DNA of 64,000 nt from an uncultured Candidatus Rokubacteria bacterium (GTDB taxonomy: Bacteria; Methylomirabilota; Methylomirabilia; Rokubacteriales; DASRDR01). The stretch is from positions 576,001-640,000 of the forward strand of contig CAWDVE010000017.1 of the NCBI GenBank assembly GCA_963805625.1. Reading direction: 5' to 3'. Position 1 is the stretch's first letter. Each line of letters opens with the position of its first letter. The notes beneath the pieces are model-generated. The model saw nothing but the letters and a program-made list of their open reading frames with translations, was not told the DNA's origin and ran no database searches. A program made the translations under genes and the position numbers. Positions 47,888 to 57,488 of this stretch are shown here, one piece after another.

Positions 47888-48801
47888 ATGATCGGCGGCG
47901 CGCCGTCCGCCACCGGCAACTGCGCGACCTGGGAAAGCGTGCTCGAGGCGCCCGCCGAGGGGCAGCACGTCGCGCAGCTCTACACCGAGCCGGATTTCCT
48001 CGTGCGCGCGGTGTGTCGGTTCGTCGTGGCGGGGCTTCGCCAAGGCGAGGCCGTGCTCCTGCTGATTAGGGCCACCCACCGGCCGGCGATCGTGAGGCAC
48101 CTCGAGGCCGACGGGTTCGTGATCGACGATCTCTCGCATCGCGGTCAGTTGACGATCCTCGACGCCACCCGGACCTTGACCGAGCTGCTTGTCCATGGGC
48201 GGCCGGAGCGCGCGCGCGTCCAGGCGGTGGTCGGCGGGGCGGTCGAGGCCCGCATGGCCGCGGGGTACACGCGGTTTCGCGCGTTCGGGGAGATGGTGGA
48301 CATCCTCCGTCGGGCGAGCCTCACGATGGCGCTCCAGCTCGAGGGGTTGTGGACCGAGCTGGTGACCGCGCGCCGGATCGCGCTCCTCTGTGGCTATTCC
48401 ATCGACACACCTTCAATCCGGAAGCCTACCGGGGGCTTCTCCAGCGTGTCAGCGCCGCGCACCCGCACGTCGTTCCCGTCGAGGACTATGCGCGGCTCGA
48501 CCACGCCGTGGAGTCGGCCTACCTGGAAGTCTTCGGTGTTGGGCGGGACGCAGGGTTTCTCCGCCGAACGTTCATCGCCAACTATCCGAGACCGGTGACG
48601 ATGCCCGACGCCCAGGCGGCGATCCTGGCCGCGCAGGAGTTCGTTCCGGAGGCCGCGGTCGCGCTCCTCGATCGGATCCGCCACCACTACCACGGCCCCC
48701 CGACGGCGGCCTCCGGGAGGCCGTCGGCGGACGGGCCGCCGGGGCTCGTCAGGTCAAGCGACCTAGCGGGCCGAGGTCGAGATTCAGATCGTCGGGGGTG
48801 A
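47888..48801 (+). pseudogene. MEDS-domain sensory protein with a frameshift near 48405
   Basis: HVAQLY, GL..GE, RAFGEMVDIL, LE.LW..L, LLCGY; an extra AC dinucleotide shifts the frame before FNPEAY...H..V.P. Confidence 0.7.
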
Positions 48802-49141
48802 GCCCGAACCGGCGTGTCAGCGCGCGGATGGCCTGCTCGAGCCTGAGCAACGCCAGCCCCACGGCCTCGGTCTCCTCGGGTGTCAACGTGCCCTCGTCGA
48901 CCCGCCGGAGGGCCTGGCGCTCGAGGAGCTGGCGTAGGAAGTCGACAAGCGTCAAGACCAGCTGCGCCATCGAGCGCTGCACGTCGTCGGGGTTGGCGTT
49001 CCAGCGCGCAGGCGCGGTGGCGCGGCGCCGCTGGCGCAGCTCCGACCGGAGCGCCCGAAGCTCCTTCGCGCGCACGGTCTTCACAGTCATCCGGCGCCGC
49101 TTCACGGCCACGCGTCGCCCCCGAATGCGTACGGTGGCCAC
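48749..49141 (-). CDS. gvpK: Gas vesicle protein GvpK
   Basis: LVLTLVDFLRQLLERQALRR, E.VG.AL, DLNLDLGPLG. Confidence 0.92.
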   Translation of the reverse strand: MATVRIRGRRVAVKRRRMTVKTVRAKELRALRSELRQRRRATAPARWNANPDDVQRSMAQLVLTLVDFLRQLLERQALRRVDEGTLTPEETEAVGLALLRLEQAIRALTRRFGLTPDDLNLDLGPLGRLT

Positions 49142-49794
49142 GGGCCGCTGACAGTGAGACGGAGCGGCGCGAGCTGGCTGGCGGCGCGGGTCACGCGCGT
49201 CCGGTATTGCGCTCTCCGGTCGCGCGACACCAGATGGTAGACGCTGGCGAGGAGCGGCGGGGTGGCATGGCGCTGGACCCGCTCGTCGGCGACGAGGTCA
49301 TCGAGTAGCGCGCGAATCGGATCTAGCTCGGGCACCGTCGCCGCGTGATGAAGGCGCTTGCGCTCGGCGAGGTAACGCGTGCCAGGACCGGGCCGGCCCC
49401 CCGCGGTCTTTCCGACTACGGGGGGGTAAGGCTGGGACGCTTCGCGGGGACCGAAGACGCGGAGGGTCATCTGCTCGTGCCCACGCACTTGGGCCAGCCT
49501 CCCCGCAAGCTCGAGGGCGCGCGGAGCCAGCAGGCGCGCGGCCGCATCCTCGTCGGACGCCACGGAACCGAAGCGCATCGGCAATATGGCGTCGACCGCG
49601 GCGGCGATGCGGCGGACGATGGCGTCGTGGCGCCGCAGAGTCGCGGGCGATGCCGCGGGTGGGGTGTCCATCCGGCCCATGACCACGTGGAAGCCTCGGC
49701 CCGGCAGGACCTCCAAACGCTCTCGGCGGAGCCCGCGGCCCGGGTCGCTCCGCAGCGAGTCGCCGACCAGGGCGTAGAGGTAGAGGACGGTCAC
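49102..49794 (-). CDS. GvpL/GvpF family protein
   Basis: YLYAL, H..IV, LPMRFG, SGPWPPYAF; GTG coupled to the upstream stop. Confidence 0.88.
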   Translation of the reverse strand: MTVLYLYALVGDSLRSDPGRGLRRERLEVLPGRGFHVVMGRMDTPPAASPATLRRHDAIVRRIAAAVDAILPMRFGSVASDEDAAARLLAPRALELAGRLAQVRGHEQMTLRVFGPREASQPYPPVVGKTAGGRPGPGTRYLAERKRLHHAATVPELDPIRALLDDLVADERVQRHATPPLLASVYHLVSRDRRAQYRTRVTRAASQLAPLRLTVSGPWPPYAFGGDAWP

Positions 49795-50036
49795 TTCCGG
49801 CCCTGCCGCGGCGTGACCCGATCGGCGGCGCACAGGAGCACCGATAGTCGCAGATAGACGAGGTTGACGTCGGCCAGGGCGAGCACGACGTCTCCCGACA
49901 CCACCACACCCTTGGTGAGGACGTGGTCCACGATGTCGAGGAGCGACGCGTCGGAATCCGGCGCCCGCGCGCGGGACCGCCGTGTCCGCCGCCGCCCGGT
50001 CAGAGACGCCCGGCGACGAAGCTGTACGGAGGCCAT
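49791..50036 (-). CDS. GvpA-family minor protein (GvpS/GvpM-like)
   Basis: SLLDIVDHVLTKGVVVSGDVVLALADVNLVYLRLSVLL. Confidence 0.85.
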   Translation of the reverse strand: MASVQLRRRASLTGRRRTRRSRARAPDSDASLLDIVDHVLTKGVVVSGDVVLALADVNLVYLRLSVLLCAADRVTPRQGRK

Positions 50037-50833
50037 GGGCCCGTTAGCCGGACGTGGAGCCCCTTGTCCGCCGCCTGTGCCGCCTGCGCCCGGACCGCCT
50101 GTCGGAACAGCGCGGCTCGCCCGGTTGGCACCAGGTAAGCTGCGTCGAGGAGCAAGGCCGGCCTGTCGTCCACCGCTATCGGGGGGCGCTGGCGGGCGGC
50201 GTCGGCGTGTCGGGCGAGCGCCCGGTGAAGCGAGGTCGCCGCCGCTCGCGCCCCGCCGGTGAGGCCGCGCGCCGTTTCGCGCTGGCGGCGACGAAGTTCA
50301 AGGAACCGAGTTCCGGGGCTCAGCCCGGCCGTCTCTCGCCGCGCCACCGCGCGCGCGCGTCGCGCCGAAGCCCCGCCTCCTGTCTCGAGCCGCGCCTGGA
50401 CCCCCCACTCCGTCCGGCCGGCCACGCTGGTCAAGCGCCGCGCGATGGCGACGCGGCGCCGGCGCACCTGGGCGAGCGCACGCCCGTCGCTCGAGAAGAG
50501 GGTCAGGAGCCGGAGAGGGAGGACAGCATGCCGCCGCGCACAGTGGGTGACGACTGCCGAATGGGCGACCGCGCATCTCGACACCGCGTCGAGGTCGCGG
50601 ACGACCCGCGCCAGCGCGGCCTCCCCGTATCGGGAAACCGGCGCGTCGGCGACGATCAGCCAGAGCGCCTGCCCGGCGGCCAGCGCCCGGAGCTTCCCCG
50701 TGCCCGGGAGCCCCCCAGCGCCTCGGAGATCCGGTGGCCGGGCGCTCCGCACGACGCAGTAGACGTACGTGGCCGCCTGTGCCGCCGCGGCGGGGCGGCC
50801 CGGCTTCGTCGAGGCCTTTCGCGCGCCTGTCAC
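50000..50833 (-). CDS. GvpL/GvpF family protein
   Basis: YVYCVV, AH..VV, VLPLRL.TLF, EWGV, LDAAYLV, TGPWPPYSF. Confidence 0.9.
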   Translation of the reverse strand: MTGARKASTKPGRPAAAAQAATYVYCVVRSARPPDLRGAGGLPGTGKLRALAAGQALWLIVADAPVSRYGEAALARVVRDLDAVSRCAVAHSAVVTHCARRHAVLPLRLLTLFSSDGRALAQVRRRRVAIARRLTSVAGRTEWGVQARLETGGGASARRARAVARRETAGLSPGTRFLELRRRQRETARGLTGGARAAATSLHRALARHADAARQRPPIAVDDRPALLLDAAYLVPTGRAALFRQAVRAQAAQAADKGLHVRLTGPWPPYSFVAGRL

Positions 50834-56749: not shown

Positions 56750-56752
56750 GAC

Positions 56753-57103
56753 TTAGGCCGGCTGAGGTGTCCGCCGCCGCGCGCGGACACGCCGCGTGGG
56801 GCGGCGCCGTGTGGCGGCGGAGGGGGTGGCGGCGAGCTGCGCCCGGAGCGCGGCGTTCTCGGCGAGGACGGCCTCCTGGGACGCGACTGCGGCCGGCCGT
56901 GACACCGGCGCTACCTGCGCAATCGACTCCGAGTACTTGAGGTAGGTATCGATCGAGGCGACAACGACCCGCGCCTCGACGGTGATCAGGTCGATTCCGA
57001 CGAGGGACACGCGCACCCAGGCGTCGATAACGATGCCCTTGTCCAGAACCCGGTCGAGGACGTCGATGAGGCTGGTTCCGCCCGTAGTGCGCTCAATTGG
57101 CAT
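56753..57103 (-). CDS. gvpA: Major gas vesicle structural protein GvpA with C-terminal extension
   Basis: [55 protein letters not shown]. Confidence 0.95.
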
Positions 57104-57107
57104 CGGT

Positions 57108-57488
57108 TCATCCTCCCGTGGGGGCCGTGGGGGCCGTGGGGGCCGTTCGCCTACGCGGAGCTCGGCGCTTGGCGGGCGCCCGCCGCGCGGTGAGCGCAGC
57201 GATCCGGCGTTCGAGGTGCCTCACCTGGCGACGCAGGGTCTCCGTCTCCACTGACGGGGTGCGGCCCCCCGGAGCCAGGTTCCTGTCGTATTTCCACCAG
57301 TCCAGCCCGATCTCCTGAGCCTTGTCGATCGAGCACACGATCAGCCGGATGCGAATGGTGAGGAGCTCGACCTCGGCCAGCGAGATCCGGATGTCCCCCG
57401 CGATCAGAAGGCCCTTGTCGAGGACCCTGTCGAGAAGGTCGACGAGGCCGGTGCCCCGCTGCCCTCCCATCGCCAGATCGTTCCGCAC
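57108..57488 (-). CDS. gvpJ: Gas vesicle protein GvpJ
   Basis: [48 protein letters not shown]. Confidence 0.9.
57117..57145. repeat. 9-bp tandem repeat (CGTGGGGGC)x3 encoding [10 protein letters not shown] in the GvpJ tail
   Basis: Seen directly in the sequence. Confidence 0.6.

Follow-up and report, generated by a model that had tools for sequence, protein, structure and literature searches.

A tandem Get3-like ATPase in a gas-vesicle operon without gvpN from an uncultured Rokubacteria bacterium

What does a two-domain ATPase of the ArsA/Get3 type do in a gas-vesicle operon that has no gvpN? The question is raised by a 64,000-nucleotide stretch (the window) of an uncultured Candidatus Rokubacteria genome (GCA_963805625.1, contig CAWDVE010000017.1, positions 576,001 to 640,000). 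Eleven genes on its minus strand (48749-57488) lie in the order gvpJ, gvpA, histidine kinase, receiver, gvpF, gvpG, tandem ATPase, gvpL, gvpS/M, second gvpL and gvpK. An earlier reading, made from the letters of the window (the sequence-only reading), had proposed that the ATPase stands in for the missing GvpN and may chaperone the Gvp subunits. Replacement of GvpN was not supported by our analysis. The ATPase is rather probably an accessory chaperone for Gvp subunits, a reading in which its action as a chaperone, its client, the order of losses and what the operon makes are inferred.

Identity of the ATPase and content of the genome

The ATPase gene (50830-52839, minus strand; 669 amino acids, GTG start at 52839, two ArsA_ATPase domains) overlaps both of its neighbors, gvpG and gvpL, by 4 nucleotides each. 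Both halves of the protein retain the GKGGVGKT, STDPAH and DTAPTGH motifs (P-loop, switch I and switch II), as expected of the two intact domains described earlier. The protein scored 334 bits against TIGR00345 (cut-off 135) and 190.7 bits against the ArsA equivalog TIGR04291, below the cut-off of 650. The metal-binding cysteines of Escherichia coli ArsA are C113, C172 and C422 (PMC2963123); in our alignment these three columns hold cysteine in three of three arsenic-type ArsA proteins and none in the window ATPase. The segment from DTAP to the next strand (TRC40 insert) is 73 and 66 residues long in the two halves of the window ATPase, 59 and 47 in all three arsenic-type ArsA proteins and 74-82 in six archaeal Get3 proteins. 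An AlphaFold model of the ATPase, with a predicted local distance difference test (pLDDT) value of 91.4, placed long helices in this segment, and the best PDB sequence matches were Chlamydomonas (algal) ArsA1 and archaeal TRC40/Get3. With the insert present and the arsenic-binding cysteines lacking, the ATPase is, on sequence grounds, Get3-like and not an arsenic pump; the trees described below place it likewise. The arsenic pump was rejected on the missing cysteines, the TIGR04291 shortfall and the lack of arsD. The nearest named homologs are from Methylomirabilota/Rokubacteria, which are mostly soil bacteria. Two apparent fusions among the relatives, GvpG-ATPase (P0041) and ATPase-GvpL (P0036), were treated as frameshift artefacts because their junctions read out of frame and each was present on one contig only.

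The genome is 99.91% complete with 6.26% contamination. The best score of the GvpN model anywhere in it was 33.9 bits against a cut-off of 266.8, which rejects a gvpN elsewhere in the genome and extends the absence noted for the window; in the phylum sample, 10 of 151 genomes scored above the cut-off of this model. The only PF00741 matches genome-wide were the three in the operon, and the only real ArsA-family match was the operon ATPase. No arsD was found in the genome by a search whose positive control worked; acr3 lies on contig C19 and the operon on contig C17. The sequence-only reading had also called gvpO and gvpC absent. A gvpO was not found in the genome, but this says little because the gvpO model matched only 1 of 36 gvp-bearing genomes; with 35 of 36 unmatched, gvpN-bearing ones included, its absence was rejected as a marker of the gvpN-less type. 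For gvpC, neither room nor an open reading frame was seen within the operon, and no gvpC profile search was made.

The locus is one more case of an association published by Castillo & Saier (2010), who reported two-domain, Cys-less ArsA homologs in gvp clusters, mostly together with gvpN, and proposed that the two ATPases energize distinct steps (PMC2963123). Their clusters 4 and 6 resemble the window operon in having a tandem ArsA homolog of about 640 amino acids without the three ArsA cysteines in a gvp cluster without arsR, and the window ATPase belongs to this class by its two domains, lack of ArsA cysteines, gvp cluster and tree grouping. Their acidobacterial example has two L/F genes, J, K and M without gvpN, as the window operon does, whereas most of their clusters have gvpN and hsp20 (PMC2963123). 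The passages of that paper on these clusters contain neither a Get3-type client model nor a mention of a tailed GvpA or of a kinase and receiver within the operon. Groups 7 (Cyanobacteria) and 8 (Myxococcales and some Proteobacteria) of Farkas (2019) share with the window ATPase the tandem domains, a TRC40 insert in both and the lack of an alpha-crystallin domain, and a general chaperone role was proposed for them; Table 1 of that paper gives no Get1/2/4-partner residues for bacterial groups, and gas vesicles go unmentioned in a text search of it (PMC6593721). Our literature search found no report joining Get3 with gas vesicles and none on gas vesicles of Rokubacteria.

Distribution of the ATPase and gvpN

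In a sample of 151 genomes of the phylum, in which an unpublished genome (G029) was counted once, as it also was among the 29 type A genomes below, matches were obtained to gvpK in 46, to gvpN in 11 and to the ATPase in 57. Three layouts were recognized among 40 regions examined. Type A is the layout of the window, without gvpN; type B reads gvpA-gvpN-gvpF-gvpG-tandem ATPase-gvpS-gvpK-gvpJ; and in type C, gvpN is accompanied by an ATPase of a single domain, located between Hsp20 and Cdc48 genes in the one locus scanned. The type A ATPase was present in 29 of the 151 genomes, which makes the gvpN-less operon type with a tailed GvpA a common one. Twenty-eight of these 29 lacked gvpN, the exception having a second, type B cluster, and 28 of the 29 also had gvpK. 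Four gvpK loci of the phylum had both gvpN and the ATPase within 16 kb, while many other loci end at contig edges. In gvpN clusters of the phylum (L041, 5744-16000; L039, 2041-2424), genes for Hsp20, Cdc48 and a DnaJ-type zinc-finger protein were seen beside the ATPase or gvpN. The genome under study has a CDC48 N-domain match in a 242-amino-acid open frame unlinked to the operon (L139, G000:C10:105975-106220).

A wider sample consisted of the best 80 of 376 relatives of the ATPase from 3 of 64 parts of the GTDB collection; it leans toward gvpN clusters because it was ranked against a type B query. Gvp genes were nearby in 63 of the 80. In the 58 loci with at least two gvp families, gvpG was directly upstream of the ATPase in 42 and gvpN was also present in 23. 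The sequence-only reading had suggested a survey for anti-correlation of gvpN and the ATPase within gvp clusters. A general anti-correlation is rejected by these 23 loci and by the four phylum gvpK loci with both genes, and the same 23 loci speak against the ATPase as a stand-in for GvpN. A plasmid search for relatives of the ATPase gave one Nostoc match. Cyanobacterial tandem ATPases (L097, L101, L105 and L125) had no gvp match in their flanks, and their genomes carry gvpN.

Type A was found in five phyla (Acidobacteriota, Gemmatimonadota, Myxococcota, Planctomycetota and Rokubacteria), in most cases together with the same kinase, and in two circularly permuted gene orders. In the permuted order (L061, L064, L092, L113, L121, L130 and L135), gvpF comes first and gvpJ-gvpA-kinase last. 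Outside the phylum sample, gvpN was present in none of 29 type A genomes and in 9 of 11 other genomes searched alike (their completeness is not stated). A scan anchored on type A gvpG, and thus blind to the ATPase, gave 80 loci, of which 7 were too short to inform; the ATPase was next to gvpG in 72 of the remaining 73, so the linkage to gvp genes is conserved. The main shell protein, GvpA (56753-57103, minus strand; 116 amino acids, 110 bits against NF006874 with a cut-off of 100), has a tail of 59 residues beyond its YLKY motif. Of 46 loci without gvpN, 45 had 24-66 residues after YLKY, and all 26 loci with gvpN had 11-20; an ENxxLR/K motif was present in the tail in 37 of the 46; the loci used for the GvpA tail and for the ATPase linkage are kin and not independent.

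One genome of the same genus (G138, 99% complete) has lost the ATPase by deletion and keeps the other gvp genes without gvpN. At its locus (L034 on C10; 6840-6935 and 8205-10802) the remnants of the ATPase are its start and end peptides, in two short, overlapping, coupled frames, and the kinase and receiver form a single 866-amino-acid frame. Decayed or partial copies were also found in the relatives G150 (decayed) and G093. Five loci (L022, L024, L027, L029 and L032) have an extra insert of about 1.5 kb with a second receiver domain between gvpF and gvpG.

Trees were built with arsenic-type ArsA as the outgroup, which an initial quick tree had lost through a coverage filter; 13 close relatives were deliberately removed from that quick tree. 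Gvp-linked first domains formed one group apart from arsenic-type ArsA (93/94 and 94/86 in two trees), and the window ATPase was placed with the tandem ATPases of gvpN-bearing clusters, which answers the call for a phylogeny against ArsA. Type C branched first, and the tandem types A and B grouped with the cyanobacterial forms at 95/91, in a tree that left out 7 loci, and at 91/85, in one without these loci, the long row L070 and the second domains of ArsA. Because gvpN-bearing lineages bracket type A, these trees suggest that gvpN was lost when the ATPase was already there, an order of events that hangs on a long-branch root.

GvpW of Serratia and the proposed role of the ATPase

The type B layout has the gene order of the cluster of Serratia sp. 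ATCC 39006 (gvpA1CNVF1GWA2K...; PMC9501494), with the ATPase at the position of gvpW. GvpW, listed as a protein of unknown function, has the same place after gvpF-gvpG as the window ATPase, in a cluster that, unlike the window operon, contains gvpC, gvpN and gvpV (PMC4982088). A gammaproteobacterial type B query retrieved P0325, 'ArsA family ATPase [Pectobacteriaceae bacterium CE70]', of 637 amino acids. Five primers in the supplement of Tashiro (2016; PMC4982088) translate to PAIYPK, VNRLF, ESSISL, ADFDKI and TLCQA in P0325, at residues 3, 250, 329, 411 and 588; three of the five peptides are unique among the 389 proteins compared, and two control primers that should lie in gvpF1 do not map to P0325. 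Because the five gvpW primers map onto this protein, Serratia GvpW is very likely an ATPase of the window's family, as judged from the sequence of a Pectobacteriaceae homolog and not from that of S39006 itself. P0325 is 35% identical to the window ATPase over 604 columns and, unlike it, retains both CxxC motifs. The literature listings and passages searched contained no sentence identifying Serratia GvpW as an ATPase; the cyanobacterial GvpW is a different, GvpL/F-related protein (PMC2963123). Through this link, the best genetic and acoustic-reporter system for gas vesicles gains a Get3-like protein of bacterial origin.

Serratia ΔgvpN cells with gvpW intact made only small bicones (PMC4982088), and thus the GvpW homolog does not replace GvpN in Serratia. 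This phenotype and the presence of gvpN in the same cluster in 23 of 58 loci speak against the idea that the ATPase stands in for GvpN, as does the cluster listed for Streptomyces coelicolor, which has neither gvpN nor such an ATPase gene; that part of the sequence-only reading is not supported.

Get3 proteins clamp hydrophobic helices within an ATP-gated groove. The two-domain Get3-type protein probably acts as an ATP-gated chaperone on hydrophobic helices of Gvp subunits, with GvpG the best client candidate and GvpA, GvpJ and GvpS as possible others. GvpG (52836-53162, minus strand; 108 amino acids, PF05120) has the clearest N-terminal hydrophobic stretch among the operon proteins (hydropathy 1.81 across residues 1-19), and the GvpA-F-G hand-over in B. 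megaterium involves GvpG (PMC11445434). The ATPase was probably kept when the lineage of the operon lost gvpN and not recruited as its replacement. In the absence of an ATPase for elongation, the tailed GvpA would most likely be built into short or bicone-like vesicles; short ones are likely because the vesicles of Serratia and haloarchaea are tiny once gvpN is lost. The operon may be controlled by the PAS kinase and the receiver encoded within it. No study of what a gvpN-less, tailed-GvpA operon makes was found in the literature searched.

GvpG residues 1-80 were the sole partner modeled with the ATPase. The predicted complex scored 0.37 against 0.00 for the best control, with at least 73% shared contacts among runs and a partner pLDDT of at least 62. 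Of the solved pairs, 116 of 157 passed the mark used for such complexes, as did 2 of the 215 mismatched ones; those that passed with scores of 0.60 or below were only 18 solved pairs and both mismatches. The chaperone part of the sequence-only reading is thus plausible and gains weak support from the prediction.

Several points weigh against the accessory-chaperone reading. The score of 0.37 falls in a range in which such predictions are more often wrong than right unless the pair was likely beforehand, and both client binding and ATPase activity of the window protein are predictions. Foldseek ranked whole two-domain ArsA structures at the top and Get3 chains next, as expected from length. The window ATPase is Met-poor. 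It shares with three copies from its genus the loss of both CxxC motifs, which the other relatives compared keep; the motif is present in group 8 of Farkas (2019) but is not universal in the Get3/TRC40-like family (PMC6593721). The branch that joins every gvp-linked form carries no star, and support is poor for type A, which lacks gvpN, having arisen once (42/12). Two gvpK loci of the phylum have gvpN without the ATPase. Type A retains the ATPase more tightly than gvpN clusters do, and this fits a bigger role there.

The genetic evidence is divided. An accessory role is favored by Serratia, in which gvpW is outside the required gene set and vesicles were still made by the ΔgvpW strain (PMC4982088). 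By primer mapping, however, the in-frame deletion joins residue 8 to residue 329, with residues 9-328 lost, and the allele would still encode the second domain, including the P-loop at residue 346. It may thus not be a null allele, domain 1 alone being removed, and the 'non-essential' call is weakened because one whole ATPase domain may be kept. In E. coli, ΔgvpW was at control level in Hurt 2023 (mean 11.5 dB, n = 24; wild type 48.1 and GFP 9.2, each n = 12; sheet 1, rows at 37 C), which weighs against an accessory role. On its side, Nyström 2025, who also used ΔgvpW constructs, obtained B-mode signals of 734 and 703 vs. 122 and 120, about six-fold up (n = 2), and the two E. coli datasets disagree. 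The making of the E. coli constructs was not found in the supplements searched (12 of 22 for Hurt and 11 of 13 for Nyström). The Nyström signal and the Serratia ΔgvpW strain together indicate that, at least under some conditions, vesicles can be made without the ATPase if gvpN is present.

A bolder version of the accessory-chaperone reading is possible, though we regard it as doubtful. In it, the type A operons of five phyla would form a widespread class of their own, building a Gvp organelle independently of GvpN: an essential Get3-type ATPase would deliver the tailed GvpA via GvpG/F, the vesicles would be small and not used for flotation, and a PAS kinase would be dedicated to them. If so, clients of bacterial Get3 would be defined for the first time; Serratia GvpW would then be this very factor, hidden by a deletion that took only half of the gene.

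It is unlikely that the ATPase took over the shell-elongation job of GvpN in the type A lineage only. Such a takeover would fit the lack of gvpN in all 29 type A genomes outside the phylum sample and in 28 of 29 within it, the position of the ATPase after gvpG in 72 of 73 informative loci and its standing as the sole Gvp-type ATPase of the operon. Assembly may also differ in loci without gvpN, since 45 of the 46 encode a tailed GvpA. However, the Serratia homolog does not cover for gvpN, gvpN and this ATPase family occur together in other cluster types, and a SIMIBI clamp and an AAA+ ring are different machines. Furthermore, G138 has neither ATPase nor gvpN, yet the other gvp genes are present.

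Improbable, too, is a nucleotide-dependent regulator or organizer that sequesters GvpG or GvpF, or limits or positions vesicles, and is not a folding helper. The six-fold gain in vesicle signal on gvpW deletion in one E. coli study, the SIMIBI switch type of the ATPase and the competition of GvpG and GvpF for GvpA in B. megaterium (PMC11445434) are consistent with regulation. The Nyström authors, however, saw gains with all single deletions and credited reduced burden, the Hurt study found signal loss, and the Hsp20 and Cdc48 neighbors suggest proteostasis.

We consider it distinctly improbable that the tailed GvpA forms a non-buoyancy or non-gas structure, served by the ATPase, or that the operon is largely cryptic. 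The conserved tail motif (37 of 46 gvpN-less loci) and the decayed or partial copies in G150 and G093 point in these directions, as does the cluster of S. coelicolor, from which vesicles were not observed (PMC4982088). That cluster (gvpOAFG-JLSK) is, like the window operon, without gvpN (PMC9501494, PMC4982088); as listed, it differs in having gvpO and in lacking an ATPase and two-component genes (PMC9501494). In contrast, the GvpA core of the window scores above the curated cut-off, homologs of all structural families required in Serratia are present (three GvpA-type, three GvpF/L-type, G and K) and gene content is conserved over five phyla.

That the ATPase is an arsenite-pump ArsA or a general tail-anchored-protein factor merely sitting in the operon is highly improbable: database labels read 'arsenite-transporting ATPase', ArsA family, acr3 is present in the genome and tail-anchored targeting is discussed for tandem bacterial Get3 (Farkas 2019; PMC6593721), but the metal-binding cysteines, a passing TIGR04291 score and arsD are all lacking, acr3 lies on another contig, gvp genes are near 63 of 80 sampled relatives and gvpK accompanies this ATPase type in 28 of 29 phylum genomes.

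Other operon genes and neighboring loci

Domain profiles were used to check the coordinates and identities of all 11 genes. They detected three Gas_vesicle, three GvpL/F, one GvpG and one GvpK domain, a PAS-HisKA-HATPase protein, a receiver and two ArsA_ATPase domains, and the canonical gas-vesicle set of GvpA with two paralogs, GvpF/L, GvpG and GvpK is present. Six of the 10 junctions are 4-nucleotide overlaps, three are gaps of 3-4 nucleotides and one is a 37-nucleotide overlap; profiles and junctions together confirmed the largely coupled, 11-gene operon of the sequence-only reading. Starts giving open reading frames of 745, 466 and 379 amino acids were discarded in favor of translationally coupled starts.

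A sigma-54-type -24/-12 motif, a putative promoter, is located about 410 bp upstream of gvpJ (57900-57915, minus strand). It was found in five of five same-genus loci and in none of 25 other loci with the same gene order, where 0.44 chance matches would be expected over all 30 loci. The first gene, on the minus strand like all that follow, encodes a gvpJ-type GvpA paralog of 126 amino acids with a basic tail (57108-57488; PF00741, E 6e-16), assigned with the help of its relatives. Downstream of gvpA are the histidine kinase, identified by domain profiles (54605-56749; 714 amino acids, two PAS domains, HisKA and HATPase), whose N-terminal part was seen, in the loci examined, in this operon type only, and a single-domain response regulator of 150 amino acids (54156-54608; PF00072, E 9.5e-28). 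GvpF (53159-54151; 330 amino acids, GTG start at 54151; PF06386, E 7e-76) has a basic N-terminal extension. Beyond the ATPase are a gvpL/F paralog (50000-50833; 277 amino acids; PF06386, E 1.9e-43), a gvpS/M-type GvpA paralog with GvpM as its best NCBIfam match (49791-50036; 81 amino acids; PF00741, E 3.9e-12), a second gvpL/F paralog (49102-49794; 230 amino acids; PF06386, E 5.8e-33) and gvpK (48749-49105; about 118 amino acids; PF05121, E 2.6e-30).

A MEDS-domain gene (47786-48801, plus strand) is convergent with the operon and has an apparent frameshift near 48410; its second frame reaches as far as 48801 and so into the end of gvpK, as would result from an assembly error or a pseudogene. 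Upstream of the operon (58326-59361 and 61100-61552, both minus strand), partial-looking frames for a mechanosensitive channel and a luciferase-like protein were seen, together with a hemerythrin-domain gene.

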